In this document: piece after piece, positions 3,959-46,481 of the stretch | Layout of the letters: every line of letters starts with the position of its first letter | How positions within the stretch are numbered: position 1 is the stretch's first letter | Origin: Escherichia coli | GTDB lineage: Bacteria; Pseudomonadota; Gammaproteobacteria; Enterobacterales; Enterobacteriaceae | Reading direction: 5' to 3' (one strand) | Length of the DNA stretch: 64,000 bases | Assembly: GCF_030013205.1 (NCBI RefSeq) | Contig: NZ_CP122648.1 | Translations under genes and position numbers: made by a program | The notes under the pieces: model-generated | Told to the model about the DNA's origin: nothing | The model's database searches: none | The model's input: the letters and a program-made list of their open reading frames with translations, nothing else

Positions 3959-6106
3959 ATGAAAAAAGTCGTCACGGTTTGCCCCTATTGCGCATCAGGT
4001 TGCAAAATCAACCTGGTCGTCGATAACGGCAAAATCGTCCGGGCGGAGGCAGCGCAGGGGAAAACCAACCAGGGTACCCTGTGTCTGAAGGGTTATTATG
4101 GCTGGGACTTCATTAACGATACCCAGATCCTGACCCCGCGCCTGAAAACCCCCATGATCCGTCGCCAGCGTGGCGGCAAACTCGAACCTGTTTCCTGGGA
4201 TGAGGCACTGAATTACGTTGCCGAGCGCCTGAGCGCCATCAAAGAGAAGTACGGTCCGGATGCCATCCAGACGACCGGCTCCTCGCGTGGTACGGGTAAC
4301 GAAACCAACTATGTAATGCAAAAATTTGCGCGCGCCGTTATTGGTACCAATAACGTTGACTGCTGCGCTCGTGTCTGACACGGCCCATCGGTTGCAGGTC
4401 TGCACCAATCGGTCGGTAATGGCGCAATGAGCAATGCTATTAACGAAATTGATAATACCGATTTAGTGTTCGTTTTCGGGTACAACCCGGCGGATTCCCA
4501 CCCAATCGTGGCGAATCACGTAATTAACGCTAAACGTAACGGGGCGAAAATTATCGTCTGCGATCCGCGCAAAATTGAAACCGCGCGCATTGCTGACATG
4601 CACATTGCACTGAAAAACGGCTCGAACATCGCGCTGTTGAATGCGATGGGCCATGTCATTATTGAAGAAAATTTGTACGACAAAGCGTTCGTCGCTTCCC
4701 GTACAGAAGGCTTTGAAGAGTATCGTAAAATCGTTGAAGGCTACACGCCGGAGTCGGTTGAAGATATCACCGGCGTCAGCGCCAGTGAGATTCGTCAGGC
4801 GGCACGGATGTATGCCCAGGCGAAAAGCGCCGCCATCCTGTGGGGCATGGGTGTAACCCAGTTCTACCAGGGCGTGGAAACCGTGCGTTCTCTGACCAGC
4901 CTCGCGATGCTGACCGGTAACCTCGGTAAGCCGCATGCGGGTGTAAACCCGGTTCGTGGTCAGAACAACGTGCAGGGTGCCTGCGATATGGGCGCGCTGC
5001 CGGATACGTATCCGGGATACCAGTACGTGAAAGATCCGGCTAACCGCGAGAAATTCGCCAAAGCCTGGGGCGTGGAAAGCCTGCCTGCTCATACCGGTTA
5101 TCGCATCAGCGAGCTGCCGCACCGCGCAGCGCATGGTGAAGTGCGTGCCGCGTACATTATGGGCGAAGATCCGCTGCAAACTGACGCGGAACTGTCGGCA
5201 GTACGTAAAGCCTTTGAAGATCTGGAACTGGTTATCGTTCAGGACATCTTTATGACCAAAACCGCGTCGGCGGCGGATGTCATTTTACCGTCAACGTCAT
5301 GGGGCGAGCATGAAGGCGTGTTTACTGCGGCTGACCGTGGCTTCCAGCGTTTCTTCAAAGCGGTTGAACCGAAGTGGGATCTGAAAACGGACTGGCAGAT
5401 TATCAGTGAAATCGCCACCCGTATGGGTTATCCGATGCACTACAACAACACCCAGGAGATCTGGGATGAGTTGCGTCATCTGTGCCCGGATTTCTACGGT
5501 GCGACTTACGAAAAAATGGGCGAACTGGGCTTCATTCAGTGGCCTTGCCGCGATACTTCAGATGCCGATCAGGGGACTTCTTATCTGTTTAAAGAGAAGT
5601 TTGATACCCCGAACGGTCTGGCGCAGTTCTTCACCTGCGACTGGGTAGCGCCAATCGACAAACTCACCGACGAGTACCCGATGGTACTGTCAACGGTGCG
5701 TGAAGTTGGTCACTACTCTTGCCGTTCGATGACCGGTAACTGTGCAGCACTGGCGGCGCTGGCTGATGAACCTGGCTACGCACAAATCAATACCGAAGAC
5801 GCCAAACGTCTGGGTATTGAAGATGAGGCATTGGTTTGGGTGCACTCGCGTAAAGGCAAAATTATCACCCGTGCGCAGGTCAGCGATCGTCCGAACAAAG
5901 GGGCGATTTATATGACCTACCAGTGGTGGATTGGTGCCTGTAACGAGCTGGTTACCGAAAACTTAAGCCCGATTACGAAAACGCCGGAATACAAATACTG
6001 CGCCGTGCGCGTCGAGCCGATCGCCGATCAGCGCGCCGCCGAGCAGTACGTGATTGACGAGTACAACAAGTTGAAAACTCGCCTGCGCGAAGCGGCACTG
6101 GCGTAA
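3959..6106 (+). CDS. fdhF: Formate dehydrogenase H (selenocysteine-containing, 715 aa) with in-frame UGA (Sec) at 4376-4378
   Basis: Two ORFs in the track (3959-4378 and 4427-6106) are in the same frame and separated only by a TGA; N-terminal 4Fe-4S Cys motif CPYCASGC; flanking protein ..CCARV-U-HGPSVAGL..; total 716 codons. Confidence 0.95.
4376..4420 (+). other. UGA-Sec codon plus SECIS stem-loop
   Basis: Immediately 3' of the in-frame TGA: CACGGCCCATCGGTTGCAGGTCTGCACCAATCGGTCGG can fold as a hairpin (CCATCGGTTG / CACCAATCGG arms), as expected for the bacterial SECIS. Confidence 0.75.
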
Positions 6107-17574: not shown

Positions 17575-19535
<1,961 letters not shown>

Positions 19536-19712
19536 TCTCTCCCCTTCCCCGGTCGCCTGACCGGGGAATACCCTTCCTCTGCAAAATGCATCACCTTTTC
19601 CCATAATATTAAACAAATAAACGCATTAAAAAATGAGCGATTTTTGACAGTCGTAGAAAATGATAATGCAGAGAATATGCCTTTTCTTTCTTGTTAATTA
19701 TAAGGATATTTT

Positions 19713-21005
19713 ATGTGCTACAATGGTTTAAATAATATGTTTTTCCCTCTTTGCCAGATTAACAATAACCACTCTGTCACAAGTCCATCACATACAAAGA
19801 AAACAAAATCAGATAATTACAGAAAACATCATAAAAACACGTTAATTGACAATAAAGCCCTCTCTCTTTTCAAAATAGATGATCATGAAAAAGTGATAGG
19901 CTTGATTCAGAAAATGAAAAGATTTTATGATAGTTTACCATCAGGAAAAATCACGAAAGAAACGGACAGGAAAATACATAAATATTTTATAGATATAGCT
20001 TCACATGCAAATAATAAATGTGACGATAGAATTACGAGAAGAGTTTACCTTAATAAAGATAAGGAAGTGTCCATTAAGGTAGTATATTTTATAAACAATG
20101 TCACCGTCCATAATAATACTATCGAAATCCCACAGACAGTAAATGGTGGTTACGATTTTTCACACCTTAGCCTGAAAGGTATCGTGATTAAAGATGAAGA
20201 TTTATCCAATTCGAATTTTGCAGGTTGCAGACTACAAAACGCTATTTTCCAGGACTGTAATATGTATAAAACGAATTTTAATTTCGCCATAATGGAAAAA
20301 ATACTTTTTGATAATTGTATTCTCGATGACTCAAATTTCGCTCAGATAAAAATGACTGACGGAACTCTAAATTCATGCTCCGCTATCCATGTTCAATTCT
20401 ACAATGCAGCAATGAATAGAGCCAATATTAAAAATACCTTCCTTGACTATTCAAATTTTTATATGGCGTACATGGTTGAGGTAAATTTTTATAAAGTAAT
20501 AGCGCCGTATGTTAATTTATTTAGAGCCGATCTTAGTTTCTCTAAACTCGATTTAATTAACTTTGAACATGCTGATCTGTCTCGCGTCAATCTGAACAAA
20601 GCAACTCTCCAGAATATAAACTTAATTGATAGCAAACTCTTTTTTACGCGGCTGACAAATACATTCCTTGAAATGGTTATATGTACCGGCTCTAATATGG
20701 CTAATGTTAATTTTAATAATGCCAATTTAAGCAATTGCCATTTCAACTGTTCTATTTTAACAAAAGCCTGGATGTTTAATACCCGTCTCTATCGGGTTAA
20801 TTTCGATGAGGCTAACGTGCAGGGAATGGGCATTTCCATTCTCCGTGAGGAGGAAAATATCCCCATTAATAGTGATACCCTGATAACACTACAGAAATTC
20901 TTTGAAGAAGATTGTACCTCTCATACTGGCATGTCACAAACTGAGGATAATATTCATGCAGTCGCTATGAAGATTACTGCAGATATTATGCGAGATGCAG
21001 ATTGA
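19713..21005 (+). CDS. yjcF: Pentapeptide-repeat protein YjcF (about 430 aa; start uncertain)
   Basis: AT-rich ORF with long runs of A(D/N)LSxxxLxxAxLxxxN-type pentapeptide repeats. Confidence 0.8.
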   Translation: MCYNGLNNMFFPLCQINNNHSVTSPSHTKKTKSDNYRKHHKNTLIDNKALSLFKIDDHEKVIGLIQKMKRFYDSLPSGKITKETDRKIHKYFIDIASHANNKCDDRITRRVYLNKDKEVSIKVVYFINNVTVHNNTIEIPQTVNGGYDFSHLSLKGIVIKDEDLSNSNFAGCRLQNAIFQDCNMYKTNFNFAIMEKILFDNCILDDSNFAQIKMTDGTLNSCSAIHVQFYNAAMNRANIKNTFLDYSNFYMAYMVEVNFYKVIAPYVNLFRADLSFSKLDLINFEHADLSRVNLNKATLQNINLIDSKLFFTRLTNTFLEMVICTGSNMANVNFNNANLSNCHFNCSILTKAWMFNTRLYRVNFDEANVQGMGISILREEENIPINSDTLITLQKFFEEDCTSHTGMSQTEDNIHAVAMKITADIMRDAD

Positions 21006-22958: not shown

Positions 22959-24308
22959 TTAGATAGCCCAGCCACCCGCATAGAAGGTCACCAGCGCCAC
23001 AGCGATAACGACCGTACCGATGTTCAACTTGCGCCATTCGCCGGAAACCAGACGACCAATCACCAGAGTCGCGAAGCCGATCATGATGCCTGTTACGATG
23101 TTACAGGTCAGCACGATGAATACCGCCGTAACCAGACCCGCCATCGCATCAACAAAATCAGCAAAGTCGATTTTCGCCACGTTACTCAGCATCAGCAGGC
23201 CAACGTACATCAGCGCCGGAGCCGTTGCATACCCCGGAACGAGGTAAGAGAGCGGAGAGAGGAACAGAATCAGCAGGAACAGCACGCCAACGGTGATAGC
23301 CGTCAACCCGGTTTTACCGCCCGCCGCCGTACCCGCCGCAGACTCGATGTATACCGCTGCCGGAGCTGCACCCACCAGGCCAGAGAAAACGCTGCTCATG
23401 GAGTCGGTGGTCAGTGCTTTCCCACCGTCAATGATCTGCCCATCTTTATCCAGCAGGTTCGCCTGACCGGCGACGGCGCGGATAGTTCCGGTGGCATCAA
23501 ATACTGCCGTCATCACCAGCGCCAGAACGCTTGGCAGGACTACAGGATTCAGCGCGCCCATAATGTCCAGGCTACCAATCAGTGAATTGCCGTTTTCATC
23601 GCTCAATGAAGGCATGGCGAAAACGCCGGAGAAATGGACGTTAGGATCGAAGATCAAACCGACAATTGAGATACCGATAATGGTCAGCAGAATGCCACCA
23701 GGGACTTTCAGTTTTTCCAGGCCGATGATCACCGCCAGACCTACCAGTGACATAATCACCGGGAAGGTCGCGAAATCACCCAGCGCAACGGGCAGACCAT
23801 CAAGCGGGTTTTTAATCACCAGACCGACACCATTAGCGGCAATGAGCAGCAGGAACAGACCGATACCGATCCCCGTGCCGTGCGCCACACCGTGCGGCAA
23901 GTTGCGCAAAATCCAGCTACGGATACCCGTGGCAGAAATTACCGTAAACAGTACACCCATCAGGAACACAGCACCCAGCGCGACAGGTACGCTAATATGT
24001 TGCCCCAGCACCAGACTGAATGCGGTAAACGCCGTCAGGGAGATGGCGCAACCAATCGCCAACGGCAGATTAGCCCACAGACCCATCACGATAGAACCGA
24101 GTCCGGCAACCAGACAGGTCGCAACGAAAACTGCCGCAGGCGGGAAGCCTGCTTTACCCAACATGCCTGGAACGACGATAACCGAGTAGACCATCGCCAG
24201 AAATGTTGTTAACCCGGCAACCACTTCCTGACGGACAGTGCTTCCACGTTGTGAAATTTTAAACCAGGCGTCGAGTGAACCGCCGGTACGCGCTGATGGC
24301 GTAGACAT
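22959..24308 (-). CDS. ghxP: Guanine/hypoxanthine permease GhxP (NCS2/AzgA family, 449 aa)
   Basis: 449-aa polytopic membrane ORF; recognised as YjcD/GhxP by sequence and synteny next to soxR. Confidence 0.85.
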
Positions 24309-24580: not shown

Positions 24581-24829
24581 CGATGCGCAAGATTGCAGCG
24601 TTATCGAGCCATATACCGTTCAGGATTGCGATAAAAAATCGTCTGAGATGACAAAAATATTGCGGCTAAAAAGTGTACTTTTACTCTGGCGAAGAAACGC
24701 CGGTGACATACAATTAAAGCATCAACACCAACCGGAACCTCCACCACGTGCTCGAATGAGGTGTGTTGACGTCGGGGGAAACCCTCCTGTGTACCAGCGG
24801 GATAGAGAGAAAGACAAAGACCGGAAAAC

Positions 24830-24860
24830 AAACTAAAGCGCCCTTGTGGCGCTTTAGTTT
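24830..24860. terminator. Palindromic terminator at the soxR 3' end
   Basis: AAACTAAAGCGCC-cttgtg-GCGCTTTAGTTT perfect 13-bp inverted repeat. Confidence 0.7.
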
Positions 24861-25318
24861 TGTTCATCTTCCAGCAAGCGTGCGCCTGTGCCTTCTTCTC
24901 CTAAGCGGTCGCCCGGGTTACGCAATGGGCAATCACTGCGCGAAAGGCAGCCACAACCAATACATCCGTCCAGCTCGTCACGCAGCGCCACTAAGGTATG
25001 AATGCGCCGATCCAACTCTTCTCGCCATTGGGACGAAAGCTGTTTCCACTCTTTCGCACTTAATGTATGCCCTTCGGGCAACACGCCGAATGCTTCACGA
25101 ATGGTCGCCAGCGGAATGCCAATACGCTGAGCAATTTTGATGATTGCGACATATCGCAACACATCACGTTTATATCGCCGCTGATTGCCACTATTACGGA
25201 TACTGCTAATCAACCCTTTGCTTTCATAGAAATGCAGCGCCGATACCGCCACACCGCTGCGTTTTGCCACTTCGCCGGGGGTTAGCAGCGCTTTAATGCG
25301 GGGTAATTTCTTTTCCAT
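24854..25318 (-). CDS. soxR: Redox-sensitive MerR-family activator SoxR (154 aa)
   Basis: MerR-type N-terminal HTH; C-terminal [2Fe-2S] motif [12 protein letters not shown]. Confidence 0.95.
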
Positions 25319-28631: not shown

Positions 28632-28793
28632 GTTCGTGTCTCCTGAAAAAAAATCGTTCTGAATAAGTGTAAACGCGCGATTGTACCATTACCAATAGCG
28701 CTTTTACTATGTTGTGACCTCGGTTCCGGGAAACAAACCTGGCCAGACATTGTTACACAACACTCCGGGTATTGCATTCCAATACTGTATATT

Positions 28794-28813
28794 CATTCAG
28801 GTCAATTTGTGTC
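28794..28813. promoter_or_regulatory. LexA (SOS) box shared by divergent ssb and uvrA promoters
   Basis: TACTGTATATTCATTCAGGT (CTGT-N8-CAG) in the ssb-uvrA intergenic region. Confidence 0.85.
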
Positions 28814-40069: not shown

Positions 40070-41107
40070 TTAACGCTTATCTGCCACCAGTTTGAGCGCG
40101 TGTTCCAGCACGTTAATGTCAGCACCAGCTTTATGGGCATTTTCACTTAAATAACGCCGCCACTGCCGCGCGCCAGGAATACCCTGGAACAAGCCCAGCA
40201 TATGCCGGGTAATATGGCCAAGATACGTCCCCTGGCTGAGTTCACGCTCAATGTACGGATACATGGCGCGCACTACCGCCACCGGATCGGCATCGGTATC
40301 CGAGGAACCAAAGATCTCTCGGTCTACCGCCGCCAGAATACCCGGATTCTGATACGCTTCGCGCCCGACCATCACGCCATCCATATGTTGCAAATGCGCT
40401 TTTGCCTCTTCCAGCGACTTGATGCCACCGTTAATCGACATTGTCAGATGCGGAAAGTCACGCTTCAGTTGATACACACGCGGATAATCGAGCGGCGGGA
40501 TTTCACGGTTTTCTTTCGGGCTTAACCCCGAAAGCCAGGCTTTACGTGCGTGGATGATGAACATCTCACACTCGCCTTTGCCGGAAACGGTGTTGATGAA
40601 ATCGCAGAGAAATTCATAGCTGTCCTGGTCGTCGATGCCAATACGCGTTTTCACCGTCACCGGAATCGACACCACATCGCGCATCGCTTTCACGCAGTCG
40701 GCAACCAGCTGCGCATTACCCATCAGACACGCCCCAAACATGCCGTTCTGCACCCGGTCAGACGGGCAGCCGACATTCAGGTTGATCTCATCATATCCGC
40801 GCGCTTCTGCCAGCTTTGCACACTGCGCCAGCGCCGCCGGATCGCTACCGCCCAGTTGCAATGCTACCGGATGTTCTTCTTCACTGTACGCCAGGTAATC
40901 ACCTTTACCGTGAATAATCGCCCCTGTAGTCACCATTTCGGTATACAGCAACGTATTGCGGGAAAGCAGACGCAAGAAATAGCGGCAATGTCTGTCCGTC
41001 CAGTCGAGCATAGGAGCAATGCTAAACCGAGAATTCCAGTAAACACCAGTTTTTTCAGGCATCACGCTGGTTTGATTAATTTTTTGTGTTTCATGATTAT
41101 CGTGCAT
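40070..41107 (-). CDS. dusA: tRNA-dihydrouridine synthase A, DusA (5' end adjoins prophage integrase; alternative start at 41062)
   Basis: TIM-barrel Dus signature (..[11 protein letters not shown].., ..IHARKAWL..); 345-aa ORF. Confidence 0.9.
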
Positions 41108-41195
41108 TTTTGAACATTTCAGGCTATTTTTCTCGCGTTAGGTTCCCGCACAGGTTCCCACGTTTTATGGGAACCCGAAATAACGAGGTCGTGTA

Positions 41196-42293
41196 ATGGC
41201 GTACTATAACATAGAGAAACGACTAAAATCCGATGGCACACCACGCTATCGCTGTAATGTGATTATCAAAGAAAAAGGTGTTATCACTTACAGGGAAAGC
41301 AAAACATTCCCTAAACATGCTCATGCCAAAACATGGGGAACACAGAAAGTGATGGAATTAGATCTATATGGCATTCCATCATCAAATGCAGTTGACGGAC
41401 TTACAGTCCGTGACTTACTACACAAATATTTAAATGACCCAAATGCCGGAGGTAAAGCAGGCCGTACTAAAAGATATGTGCTGGAACTGCTTATGGATAG
41501 TGACATCTCCGCGATCAAACTATCTGAACTGACAGAAAATGACGTAATTGAACATTGCAGGCTAAGAAACAACGCTGGTGCAGGTCCAGCAACAGTCAGC
41601 CACGATGTTAGTTATCTTGGCAGTGTTCTGGATGCGGCCAAACCTGTATACGGAATTAATTACACATCAAACCCGGCGAAAAGCGCTCGCCCATATCTAC
41701 TTAAACTTGGTTTGATTGGTAAATCAAACCGTCGTAATCGTAGACCAGCATCTGATGAACTGGACATGCTCATTGAAGGCCTTCAACAACGATCTACTCA
41801 TAAATGCTCAAAAATTCCGTTCGTTGATATCCTCAAATTTTCTGTGTGGTCCTGTATGCGGATCGGAGAAGTATGCCGGTTACGATGGGAAGATCTCGAC
41901 CAGGAACAAAAATCTATACTCGTAAGAGACAGGAAAGATCCACGCAAAAAGGAAGGCAACCACATGAAAGTAGCCTTGCTTGGGGAAGCCTGGGATATCG
42001 TCCAACGACAGCCCAAAAAATCGGAATTCATTTTTCCATATAACAGCACTTCTGTTACTGCAGGATTTCAGAGGGTAAGAAGCAAATTAGGTATTAAAGA
42101 TCTGCGATACCATGATTTGCGTAGAGAAGGGGCAAGTCGCTTATTTGAGGCTGGTTTTAGTATTGAGGAAGTCGCTCAGGTTACAGGGCATCGTTCATTA
42201 AACGTGCTATGGCAGGTATATACCGAACTGTATCCGAAATCTTTACATAATCGTTTTGAAGAGCTCCAAAGGAGCAGAAATAAGACCTCTTGA
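41196..42293 (+). CDS. int: Tyrosine site-specific integrase (dusA-associated type, 365 aa)
   Basis: C-terminal catalytic domain with R..HxxR..Y layout (..MRIGEVCRLRWEDL.., ..RYHDLRREGASR.., ..VTGHRSLNVLWQVY..); located next to dusA 5' end. Confidence 0.9.
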   Translation: MAYYNIEKRLKSDGTPRYRCNVIIKEKGVITYRESKTFPKHAHAKTWGTQKVMELDLYGIPSSNAVDGLTVRDLLHKYLNDPNAGGKAGRTKRYVLELLMDSDISAIKLSELTENDVIEHCRLRNNAGAGPATVSHDVSYLGSVLDAAKPVYGINYTSNPAKSARPYLLKLGLIGKSNRRNRRPASDELDMLIEGLQQRSTHKCSKIPFVDILKFSVWSCMRIGEVCRLRWEDLDQEQKSILVRDRKDPRKKEGNHMKVALLGEAWDIVQRQPKKSEFIFPYNSTSVTAGFQRVRSKLGIKDLRYHDLRREGASRLFEAGFSIEEVAQVTGHRSLNVLWQVYTELYPKSLHNRFEELQRSRNKTS

Positions 42294-42295
42294 CA

Positions 42296-42339
42296 CTGTT
42301 TATCCATACAGTTAAAAATAACACTGTATACAAACACAG
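42296..42339. promoter_or_regulatory. Two tandem consensus LexA (SOS) boxes upstream of the dinI-like gene
   Basis: CTGTTTATCCATACAG (42296-42311) and CTGTATACAAACACAG (42324-42339): both perfect CTGT-N8-ACAG. Confidence 0.8.
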
Positions 42340-42354
42340 TATAGAGGGACTTTT

Positions 42355-42603
42355 ATGCGTATTGAGATCTGCATAGCCAAAGAAAAAATGACTAAAATGC
42401 CAAACGGTGCTGTGGATGCGTTAAAGGAAGAATTAACCCGACGCATCAGTAAACGTTATGACGATGTAGAGGTGATCGTAAAAGCCACCAGCAACGATGG
42501 CCTTTCTGTTACGCGCACCGCCGATAAAGATTCAGCTAAAACTTTTGTTCAGGAAACTCTGAAAGATACCTGGGAGTCTGCTGACGAGTGGTTTGTTCAC
42601 TAA
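42355..42603 (+). CDS. DinI-family SOS-modulating protein (82 aa)
   Basis: MRIEICIAK...GAVDAL.EEL.RRI...[16 protein letters not shown] closely parallels DinI (MRIEVTIAK...ETWESADDWFV). Confidence 0.85.
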
Positions 42604-42720
42604 TTAGCACGTAAAATCAGTAACGGCTGGAAATCATTCAATACTCGCACTATCGAAAGTTAACCAGCCAGCCGCAGTATCCTATCATGACAAGTTACTG
42701 CGGCTTTTTACTTTTTATAT

Positions 42721-43023
42721 TTAACGGATCAACATCCAGATCAGCAGACACGCCACCACCGGCACAGCAAAATCCATCAGGCTTGCTACATCCCACGCGC
42801 GTAGATCAAAACCGCCCCACCACGGCATATTCATACGCTTGCCATGCCCGAACATTTCAATCCAGCGATATTCTGCCTGGGTGTGTTCCCGCGCAATGAA
42901 GAATGTACAACCGGCTATCGCCCCGTAAGCCCAGTTTCCGGTAAAAAGACCAACCAGTACCTGCGCAGCCACAGCACAAAGTGCATGAAGGAAAGGTGTT
43001 ATATCCATTTTCATCCCACCCAA
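42721..43023 (-). CDS. Small hydrophobic prophage protein, function unknown
   Basis: 100-aa ORF with 2-3 hydrophobic helices; downstream of the tail fibre genes. Confidence 0.4.
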   Translation of the reverse strand: MGGMKMDITPFLHALCAVAAQVLVGLFTGNWAYGAIAGCTFFIAREHTQAEYRWIEMFGHGKRMNMPWWGGFDLRAWDVASLMDFAVPVVACLLIWMLIR

Positions 43024-44100: not shown

Positions 44101-44382
44101 TCACATCCAGCCACGAAGTTGATGCTCAACAGCAACCACGTATTCATCGAATATTGACGGTGTTTTCACATCATTAATGATGCGCACGTTTACAAAATAT
44201 CCGTCTTCCTTAACACATACCGGTTCGCCATCTTCAGTCAGTTCTCCGGTTTCTTTGTACACGTTACCTATCACGTCAATAAGAATATCATCCTGCATCG
44301 ACTCATCATCATAATAGCCGATACTCTCCATAAAGGCCGAAAAGTCGGCCCTGTCGACAAATTTGAGTGTTAAATCTTTCAT
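44101..44382 (-). CDS. Hypothetical acidic phage protein (93 aa)
   Basis: ORF tightly packed between two tail fibre genes; no recognisable motif. Confidence 0.4.
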   Translation of the reverse strand: MKDLTLKFVDRADFSAFMESIGYYDDESMQDDILIDVIGNVYKETGELTEDGEPVCVKEDGYFVNVRIINDVKTPSIFDEYVVAVEHQLRGWM

Positions 44383-46481
44383 TAGATTAACTCCCCCACC
44401 TGAGCATCAGTCAATGCCTTGTGCCATATTCTGAAATTCCTGACATGACCAAATAAATGACGTAACCCGGCTGTAGTCTGGCCTCCAATACGGATAATTG
44501 CGGTGTTCTGAATATAAGACCATGTGGTTTTTGTTTCGCTGGATATACGCCCGTTACTTACTGAGCACGTAGACTGATCTGACTTTACACGCATCCCCAT
44601 AACCATTTTTTCAAGCGATGCGTTTTCGTTTACCAGTCTGTTAGCTCCTCCAATATCGCAATAAGGAAATCCGTCGTAATCTGCTGAAGAACCGAAGCCA
44701 AGAATAATAGCCGCTCCGGTTTGATGACCGCCGGTATCAAAAACACGCGGTGCTGCATTTGGTGTTTTATTCCAGTTTTTATGAGCCTCAACCAGAACTG
44801 TAAAAGGAAGACTATAAAGATTATTCTTAATTGGAACTGTAACCATATCGCTTGCGCGGGTGCTTGCAGTTGTATCAGTTACAATAAATGACGAAGCACT
44901 TGATCCACCTTCCACTTGTGGAGTTGCGATATCCAGATAGTCTCCAGATGCTGTGTCTGAACCTTTTACTGGAGCGTATTGAACCATCGCACCAATCATG
45001 CTCTCTGTATCTAGTGCAGTAATTGTAGCCTGATAGAAAATCCAACCAGTAGCCTCATCTTTTACAGCCTTTGCAATAATACGATTTGCTGCACCACCAG
45101 TTTTATCAATTACAAGTGTTGATAAATTGAGGTAAGCATCTCCCAAAAAAGTGTAAGTAGAACCATCATGATGTTCAAATCTTAAACGACACCTTATATT
45201 TTCAACATCACTTCTGACACGGCATGAAATGGTCACATATTTTTCATCACCTGTGACATCAAATCCTTTACTGCCAGAAACCGTTACGATACTAATCGCA
45301 CTTGTTTGACCAATAAGAGTATCTTTTACAGTAAATCTACCATAAGTAAAATTAAAAGAATCCGTGGATATTTCTGTGAGTTCCAGATTGCTTGACTTAT
45401 TCCATTTAGATGGATTTGTTGAATTAAGCAGAAGATTAGTTCTTTGCCCCTCAATAAGCAGGCCATCACGTTCAAATCGTGGCTCGTCAATGGCAGCCTC
45501 TGTCAGCACACCAGATTTATTAATATAGGTTGCTTTCGATGCGCGTTTAAACTTTACAACCTTATCGCCAGGCATCGTTATTTCATCATCACCAATAACA
45601 ATCTTTTTATATGACGGCGAAAACCCCGTAATCATATCCAGTGAATCGTTAAATGGTATCCACACATCAGGAAGCGGCTGCAATACTTGTTTATACGGCT
45701 CCGCAGCCTGGCTTGCATACTCTCTGGCTGCATCCTCACTTGCTTTAGCTGCTGTCTGGCTTGCAGCGGATGCTTTCGCCGAGTTAGCCGCCGCAGTCTC
45801 GCTCGCCTTTGCGTTGGTTTCACTGGTTTTTGCAGCTTTTTGACTGTTGGCTGATGCAGTGGCAGAAGAAGCCGCCGCACTTGCAGAACCAGCTGCGGCA
45901 CTCTCGCTTTGGGCTGCTGCATCCTGACTGTTTTTCGCCGCAGTTTCGCTGGCTTTGGCATTCGTTTCGCTGGTCTTCGCTGCCGTCTGGCTGGACTTTG
46001 CGTTAGTTTCACTCGTCTTCGCAGCTTTCTGGCTGTTAGCCGCAGCAGTTGCTGATCCAGCTGCTGAAGTCGCAGAACCGGCTGCCGCGCTCTCGCTTTG
46101 GGCTGCTGAAACCTGGCTGTTTTTTGCTGCAGTTTCACTGGCTTTAGCATTCGTTTCGCTGGTCTTCGCTGCCGTCTGGCTGGACTTTGCGTTGGTTTCG
46201 CTCGTCTTTGCGGCTGTCTCGCTATTTTTCGCGTTGGTTTCTGATTTTTTGGCTGCTGTCGCGTAGTTTGCCGATGCAGTCTTTGAGGTCGCTGCCGCCT
46301 GTGCACTATTAGCTGCATTCGTTTCTGAGGTTTTCGCTGCGTTCTTCGATGATGCCGCTGCAGTTTCGGATTTCTTTGCCGCCGCTGCGCTCTGAGAGGC
46401 GGCTTCGGCGTTGCGTGCCGCTTCTTCCACCATTGCCTCAAAACGACGCAATGCCTCCGGCATGACATCATCTTCCGTCAA
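44382..46481 (-). CDS. Side tail fibre protein (Stf-like) with repetitive Ala/Ser/Thr/Lys-rich N-terminal shaft (699 aa)
   Basis: N-terminal region built of SETNAK / AAKTSETNAK repeats like lambdoid Stf; immediately downstream of J. Confidence 0.8.
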   Translation of the reverse strand: MTEDDVMPEALRRFEAMVEEAARNAEAASQSAAAAKKSETAAASSKNAAKTSETNAANSAQAAATSKTASANYATAAKKSETNAKNSETAAKTSETNAKSSQTAAKTSETNAKASETAAKNSQVSAAQSESAAAGSATSAAGSATAAANSQKAAKTSETNAKSSQTAAKTSETNAKASETAAKNSQDAAAQSESAAAGSASAAASSATASANSQKAAKTSETNAKASETAAANSAKASAASQTAAKASEDAAREYASQAAEPYKQVLQPLPDVWIPFNDSLDMITGFSPSYKKIVIGDDEITMPGDKVVKFKRASKATYINKSGVLTEAAIDEPRFERDGLLIEGQRTNLLLNSTNPSKWNKSSNLELTEISTDSFNFTYGRFTVKDTLIGQTSAISIVTVSGSKGFDVTGDEKYVTISCRVRSDVENIRCRLRFEHHDGSTYTFLGDAYLNLSTLVIDKTGGAANRIIAKAVKDEATGWIFYQATITALDTESMIGAMVQYAPVKGSDTASGDYLDIATPQVEGGSSASSFIVTDTTASTRASDMVTVPIKNNLYSLPFTVLVEAHKNWNKTPNAAPRVFDTGGHQTGAAIILGFGSSADYDGFPYCDIGGANRLVNENASLEKMVMGMRVKSDQSTCSVSNGRISSETKTTWSYIQNTAIIRIGGQTTAGLRHLFGHVRNFRIWHKALTDAQVGELI
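45800..46400. repeat. Nested tandem repeats inside the stf-like gene (189-bp duplication built from degenerate 21-bp units)
   Basis: Near-identical copies with period 189 bp (e.g. GGCTTTGGCATTCGTTTCGCTGGTCTTCGCTGCCGTCTGGCTGGACTTTGCGTT at 45951 and again at 46140); 21-bp sub-periodicity. Confidence 0.85.

Follow-up and report, generated by a model that had tools for sequence, protein, structure and literature searches.

Does a prophage gene for a presumed modulator of RecA, lying next to the integrase gene, answer to the SOS repressor of its host, and if so, does the prophage use it as a feedback on its own induction? The first-pass annotation of this locus had proposed both. We examined these proposals in a window of 64,000 nucleotides of Escherichia coli DNA (the window being the whole stretch that was analysed; positions refer to it unless another sequence is named), which is 100% identical to NZ_CP122643.1, the chromosome of the porcine enterotoxigenic E. 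coli ETEC4079. We consider it probable (about 85%) that positions 42290-42610 are a self-contained 321-bp moron, followed by a terminator of the phage backbone, whose DinI-family gene is directly repressed by host LexA; the induction feedback loop, on the other hand, is speculation.

Results

A dinI-like gene beside the integrase gene of a defective prophage

The prophage is mEp460-like and defective and lies at dusA (Table 1). The 5' end of dusA is its insertion site (window 40070-41195), where the prophage supplies a replacement 5' end, and the displaced dusA fragment is found at the far prophage junction (L015 33781-33885); a replacement 5' end together with a displaced fragment is characteristic of integrases specific for dusA. 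About 4 kb past the far prophage end, outside the window, is the host lexA-dinF locus. Relative to an intact relative (the mEp460-like prophage of strain 20Ec-P-124), with which the window prophage is not collinear, it lacks about 10 kb with genes for portal, capsid and tail, and a tape-measure gene without its N-terminus adjoins a large-terminase fragment without its C-terminus. A 699-aa tail-fibre ORF (44382-46481) is likewise marked incomplete in RefSeq. Both the source strain and the intact relative encode a prophage repressor with HTH_3 and Peptidase_S24 domains, which is thus of the RecA-dependent self-cleaving type.

Three genes form a non-phage cargo between the lysis genes and the Q antiterminator gene, namely those for the LPS core heptose(II)-phosphate phosphatase, the AraC-family regulator and the DUF6731 protein, and the tRNA-Gly(TCC) gene lies on the lysis side of Q, flanked by the holin genes and the AraC-family regulator gene. 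Downstream of Q, the intact prophage of 20Ec-P-124 encodes an AB5-toxin binding subunit and a scabin-related ADP-ribosyltransferase (19066-20240 of its sequence), and the ETEC4079 prophage has other cargo there. The hydrophobic ORF that lies on the minus strand past the dinI-like gene is slightly shorter in its RefSeq version.

Table 1. Features of the window discussed in the text (HI, heterology index; values comparable only within this analysis).
Feature	Position	Strand	Basis or remark
SECIS element	4371-4425	+	Rfam; ordinary chromosomal feature
sraL Hfq-binding sRNA	24721-24861	+	Rfam; ordinary chromosomal feature
Known uvrA/ssb LexA operator, TACTGTATATTCATTCAGGT	28783-28802		Third-best LexA matrix match in window; internal positive control
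dusA	40070-41107	minus	5' end meets prophage at 41108-41195
Tyrosine integrase, prophage gene 1	41196-42293	+	ORF list; NCBIfam and PHROG integrase matches; RefSeq annotation of identical sequence
-35 hexamer, TTGACA	42290-42295	+	Promoter scan; same promoter annotated in mEp460 GenBank record
LexA box 1, CTGTTTATCCATACAG	42296-42311 (20-mer 42294-42313)	+	HI 5.4; best match in window
-10 region, TAAAAAT	42313-42319	+	Promoter scan; mEp460 promoter annotation; invariant across E. coli copies
LexA box 2, CTGTATACAAACACAG	42324-42339 (20-mer 42322-42341)	+	HI 5.7; second-best match in window
Shine-Dalgarno-like AGAGGGA	42343-42349	+	Direct reading of sequence; 5 nt to ATG
DinI-like protein, 82 aa, identical to WP_001217539.1	42355-42603	+	Pfam, PHROG, PDB, K-12 DinI alignment, RefSeq name
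Lambdoid backbone segment, 67 bp, non-coding	42611-42677	+	Lambda 24190-24256; HK97; adjoining sib site
Intrinsic terminator	42670-42716	+	Perfect 10-bp stem AGCCGCAGUA/UACUGCGGCU, 16-nt loop, then UUUUUACUUUUU
Hydrophobic ORF, 100 aa	42721-43023	minus	PHROG 1443 (unknown function), 3.5e-57; between terminator and tail-fibre genes
Tape-measure gene, N-terminus missing	52465-53250		Adjoins terminase fragment
Large-terminase fragment, C-terminus missing	53285-54079		Adjoins tape-measure remnant
LPS core heptose(II)-phosphate phosphatase	55058-55633	+	RefSeq name
tRNA-Gly(TCC)	57201-57275	minus	Rfam and ARAGORN; annotated in source record
AraC-family regulator	57693-58544	minus	RefSeq name
DUF6731 protein	about 58871-59656	+	RefSeq name
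LexA N-terminal DNA-binding domain only, without S24 cleavage domain, 108 aa	62720-63046	minus	nin operon; PHROG 362

The product is a member of the DinI family

The first-pass annotation had described the product of the gene as collinear with DinI, and this is borne out by profile, structural and pairwise matches. The ORF covers the whole Pfam DinI model (PF06183, positions 1-63 of 63, E=1.5e-19), matches PHROG 189, "RecA filament binding protein DinI" (4e-31), as well as the DinI structures 1GHH and 7YWA in the PDB (8e-13; 1GHH over residues 1-81), and is 46% identical to K-12 DinI over its full length. The PHROG 189 profile has 151 positions, and the protein aligns to the second half only (71-149). 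[quoted passage not shown] When these contacts are mapped onto the phage protein (L13 to M15, L21 to L23, E24 to E26, E69 to D71, W71 to W73, D76 to E78, W77 to W79 and F78 to F80), five of the eight are identical and the other three conservative (L to M, E to D, D to E). The protein would thus be expected to bind RecA, as judged from its sequence. Its score against the NCBIfam DinI equivalog model (NF007893) is 72.5 bits, under the cut-off of 111, which makes it a paralogue of DinI, in line with its PGAP/RefSeq name "DinI-like family protein"; its effects on RecA could therefore differ from those of DinI.

Two LexA-type operators overlie the predicted promoter

From position 42290 on, the sequence reads TTGACA / CTGTTTATCCATACAG / T / TAAAAAT / AACA / CTGTATACAAACACAG / TAT / AGAGGGA / CTTTT / ATG, the ATG standing at 42355. 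The integrase is context of the cassette and lies outside it, its TGA stop (42291-42293) falling within the -35 hexamer of the dinI-like promoter, with 61 bp between this stop and the dinI-like ATG. Box 1 had been placed 3 bp after the integrase stop; it does start at the third base, the separating bases being two. Box 1 occupies 16 of the 17 spacer bases between the -35 and the -10, which may be read either as TAAAAA with a 17-nt spacer or as AAAAAT with an 18-nt spacer. Box 2 starts 5 nt past the -10, over the transcription start that the -10 predicts at about 42325. Promoters that would instead hold box 2 in their spacer (with TATACA or TATAGA as -10) were rejected: they lack an acceptable -35 and would leave the gene without its ribosome-binding site.

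The two boxes are the only matches to CTGT-N8-ACAG on both strands of the 64 kb window, for which shuffled sequences give an expectation of 0.59 per window; by a simple estimate from the shuffle density, two such sites 28 bp apart would arise by chance in about 3 of 10,000 windows. The boxes had been called perfect, which holds for their CTGT/ACAG arms; against the 20-bp consensus TACTGTATATATATACAGTA they match at 15 (box 1) and 16 (box 2) of the 20 positions. For scoring we built a LexA heterology-index (HI) matrix from 28 E. coli operators of the published compilations, its values being comparable only within this analysis; on their own matrix the 28 known sites span HI 2.0-11.7. The matrix scan that had been asked for places box 1 and box 2 first and second in the window, ahead of the known uvrA/ssb LexA operator (HI 6.35), the next site scoring 11.7. 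As further controls, the real dinI operator of MG1655 and the two lexA operators of the source strain are found again with the matrix, and over 42 kb around the prophage the sites below HI 9 are the two lexA operators and the two phage boxes only. The tandem SOS boxes directly before the phage gene are thus as first described, with scores in the range of proven operators and a position over the predicted core promoter and start.

Operator conservation among close and distant relatives

In nine E. coli variants of the cassette, both boxes are fixed in position and their CTG/CAG arms are invariant while the inner bases vary: the arm of box 1 alternates between CTGT and CTGG, and the interior of box 2 is TATACAAACA, TACATAACTA or TATATAACCA. 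One further copy of the same cassette, in phage JLK-2012, has both boxes broken by single arm mutations (box 1 CAG to CAA, leaving a remnant of HI 9.7, and box 2 CTG to TTG; 238-281 of its sequence). It is possibly a constitutively expressed variant, and its broken operators indicate that tight LexA control is usual and not obligatory.

The comparison was extended to phages of Escherichia, Citrobacter, Klebsiella, Yersinia, Aeromonas and Salmonella, from which eight distant homologues (38-60% identical as proteins) were sampled. A LexA-type site precedes the gene or its operon in all eight and also in Klebsiella phage P12620-1, with HI 2.3-4.7 in seven of these nine. In six of the eight the box is strong (HI 2.3-3.5): it lies 35-39 bp ahead of the ATG in five of them, and in YeP2 it precedes a small partner ORF upstream of the gene. 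The tandem pair recurs in Citrobacter phage phiNP, with boxes at -60 and -34 (HI 6.9 and 4.1), and the eighth homologue is the JLK-2012 copy with its HI 9.7 remnant. LexA control thus appears, from these sequences, to be a general and selected property of phage DinI-like genes, and the tandem arrangement characterises the cassette that lies close to int and att.

Boundaries, terminator and spread of the cassette

An alignment of ten cassette copies sets the left boundary of the mobile cassette at the -35 hexamer: upstream of TTGACA the copies stand in four unrelated contexts (an integrase 3' end, att-proximal sequence and others), and their similarity starts exactly at the -35. The right boundary is given by a non-coding backbone segment that is kept in lambda, HK97, HK75, mEp234 and others, all of which are without dinI. 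It is this shared start in four contexts, together with a dinI-less 3' backbone in lambda and HK97, that marks the cassette as behaving like a moron, with a promoter and a terminator of its own and presence or absence at a fixed position of the backbone.

The backbone segment folds into a hairpin and is the 5' part of the terminator region, in which 42670-42679 pairs with 42696-42705; a simple terminator scanner missed this hairpin because its loop exceeds 8 nt. The 3' UTR folds at -30.1 kcal/mol (z = -4.0). In Klebsiella the sRNA DinR is cut from the dinI mRNA, its targeting stretch being Klebsiella-specific (PMC10907235); a search for such a 3' UTR sRNA with Rfam over 42200-42800 (E<=5) returned zero RNA families.

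Of 5426 complete E. coli genomes, 1814 carry the cassette, a single genome having up to 7 copies, and it is always named "DinI-like". Among phage genomes, BLAST finds near-identical copies in mEp460, cdtI, VT1-Sakai, 2H10, Lys8385Vzw and many Stx1a, Stx2a, Stx2c and Stx2d phages.

A LexA-domain-only gene in the nin operon

The nin operon of the prophage includes a gene for a 108-aa protein annotated as a "LexA family transcriptional regulator" (Table 1). Its close homologue in a related prophage matches Pfam LexA_DNA_bind (3.8e-19). Against residues 1-90 of host LexA the protein is 43% identical, ungapped through residue 68, with a recognition helix that is almost unchanged (RS-NAA-EHL-AL). 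The ORF has ATGA overlaps with both neighbouring genes and is translationally coupled. LexA-domain-only proteins of this kind are found in 61 phage records, and a literature search on them found no paper. The gene assorts independently of the cassette: Shigella Sf phages have the LexA-domain gene without DinI, and Stx1a and Stx2a phages the reverse.

Discussion

That the dinI-like gene is under SOS control by LexA is strongly indicated by several lines of sequence comparison and by analogy: the boxes lie on the spacer and on the predicted start, their arms are kept in diverged copies, distant phage homologues have such boxes as well, and there is the precedent of Gifsy. The earlier picture of a RecA-modulator homologue under SOS-type operators inside a prophage is thus supported in its location, its boxes and its protein family, with LexA control as the inferred element. 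For the cassette itself, we infer that LexA binds, that damage induces the gene, that the protein binds RecA, and whatever effect this has on physiology; the literature searched and an EHEC ciprofloxacin data set gave no direct description of LexA regulation or expression of the E. coli cassette.

We propose the following sequence of events. In an undamaged lysogen, LexA dimers on box 1 (in the spacer) and on box 2 (at the start) would close this promoter with its consensus -35, and LexA at either box alone should exclude RNA polymerase; this likely mode of repression follows from the position of the boxes on the promoter. Since the integrase gene has no terminator ahead of the promoter, read-through could give some LexA-independent expression. 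Upon DNA damage, activated RecA filaments would promote LexA self-cleavage, both operators would clear and the 82-aa protein would be made from a transcript predicted to end at the terminator hairpin. The protein should sit in the groove of the RecA filament, like DinI, and depending on its dose it might stabilise RecA filaments or compete with co-protease substrates (UmuD, LexA, CI-type repressors). The host dinI operator scores HI 4.6 on the same matrix, and two sites as strong as this operator would be expected to combine tight repression with a comparatively late release. The phage protein would then be an extra dose of DinI, supplied by the phage, that tunes the host SOS response and is not essential to the induction switch.

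The cassette has close and more distant counterparts. It is the same as that of mEp460 (gp21), cdtI (gp30) and VT1-Sakai (H0001), where the protein is 96-100% identical and the position is the same, with the tail-fibre or cargo region on one side and att/int on the other. There is no substantive difference, save that the present copy lies in a defective prophage. The annotation of the E. coli phage gene as dinI goes back at least to the VT1-Sakai record, and LexA boxes are annotated in none of the mEp460, cdtI and VT1-Sakai-type records inspected, that of mEp460 having the promoter. The chromosomal dinI of E. coli (b1061) is an SOS gene of about 81 aa with a LexA box at its promoter, and the phage protein shares its RecA-contact residues and acidic C-terminal helix; it differs by a 2-residue insertion after K9 and in the central beta region, and the host gene has one box (ACCTGTATAAATAACCAGTA) where the phage gene has two. 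The analogy for LexA control extends to Klebsiella dinI, through ChIP (PMC10907235). The closest precedent is in Salmonella, where Gifsy-1, -2 and -3 each have a dinI homologue that lies behind a LexA box and is LexA-controlled, the protein accumulating after mitomycin C (Lemire, Figueroa-Bossi and Bossi 2011, PMC3121763). Here as there, a prophage-borne DinI homologue stands directly 3' of a LexA box; the Gifsy genes, however, have one box, are found downstream of replication genes and head an operon with irsA and the gfoA/gftA antirepressor that is responsible for induction (PMC3121763), whereas the present gene stands alone behind two boxes at the int/att end. The 82-aa protein is probably about 40% identical to the Gifsy class, judging from the nin-region homologues of mEp237 and SEN34.

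How far does the evidence favour this reading over others? A dedicated induction feedback, in which the DinI-like protein would modulate the RecA-stimulated cleavage of the prophage's own CI and so commit the prophage to induction or act as a brake, is in our view unlikely. A repressor with HTH and Peptidase_S24 domains, as found in the source strain and the intact relative, cleaves itself, so that a RecA modulator could in principle affect induction, and the late, deep-SOS expression that two strong operators would predict is the regime of CI cleavage. However, non-polar dinI deletions in Gifsy-1 and Gifsy-3 did not significantly change the level or the rate of induction (PMC3121763), the cassette moves without regard to immunity regions and integrases, and the copy studied here is intact, its prophage being without head genes and some of the tail genes; an unproven loop of this kind would do little for virus production in a defective prophage. 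We give still less credit to a phage rewiring of SOS in which the 108-aa protein, if it binds SOS boxes, would be an uncleavable LexA mimic that, after induction and while RecA is still active, re-closes the phage dinI operators and the host regulon; if this long shot were true, the phage would obtain a timed DinI pulse together with a shutdown of host SOS functions.

The remaining readings fare worse. Coliphage 186 is P2-like and its repressor is non-cleavable. Its Tum protein, like the split tum of PSP3, is the product of a LexA-repressed phage gene with a DinI-like segment (PMC3121763; PHROG 189 profile), and our gene could be imagined as a remnant or component of such an antirepressor module under LexA control (like that of 186 Tum, PSP3 or Gifsy dinI-gfoA), a small antirepressor being the real effector. 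The match to only the second half of PHROG 189 is what one would expect of a family that includes Tum-like fusions, in which the C-terminal half is DinI-like; Gifsy operons start with dinI (PMC3121763), and the more distant homologues of mEp237, SEN34 and pAEv1818, in the nin region, have a small ORF after them, while YeP2 has one upstream behind its LexA box. Yet the DinI-like ORF has no N-terminal extension and hence lacks the antirepressor half of Tum, the ORF list and the RNA fold yielded no same-strand ORF of at least 30 aa between its stop and the terminator, the gene is at the tail-fibre/att end and not in the nin region, and a self-cleaving repressor needs no antirepressor. With no fused or adjacent partner ORF, we rejected this assignment as very improbable. 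Most improbable of all, we think, is that the boxes are fortuitous and non-functional, the gene being constitutive or read through from the integrase gene. AT-rich promoter regions may resemble LexA sites, a terminator is absent between int and the cassette, and the JLK-2012 copy tolerates broken boxes; but against chance resemblance stand the two sole core matches in 64 kb, 28 bp apart and at a promoter, which score like bona fide operators, keep their arms in diverged copies and recur before unrelated phage dinI homologues.

The preferred reading, a LexA-repressed DinI moron, places the locus among familiar things: the cassette is ordinary, widespread and already annotated, and its LexA control is of a kind demonstrated in Salmonella prophages. 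Its novelty had been overrated, given that about a third of complete E. coli genomes already carry the gene under a DinI-like annotation; the double LexA-operator layout might be the only undocumented element of the cassette. It reveals no new mechanism, and the double-operator, probably late-SOS promoter is a concrete handle that can be tested. A phage DinI-like gene is among the genes associated with the emergence of quinolone resistance in a comparative study (PMC10575684). The significance is modest: copies of the cassette, many of them on Shiga-toxin phages, add to the dose of DinI and bring as many as 14 further strong LexA sites, and extra copies could shift SOS timing, UmuD-dependent mutagenesis and the antibiotic-triggered induction of prophages and toxins.
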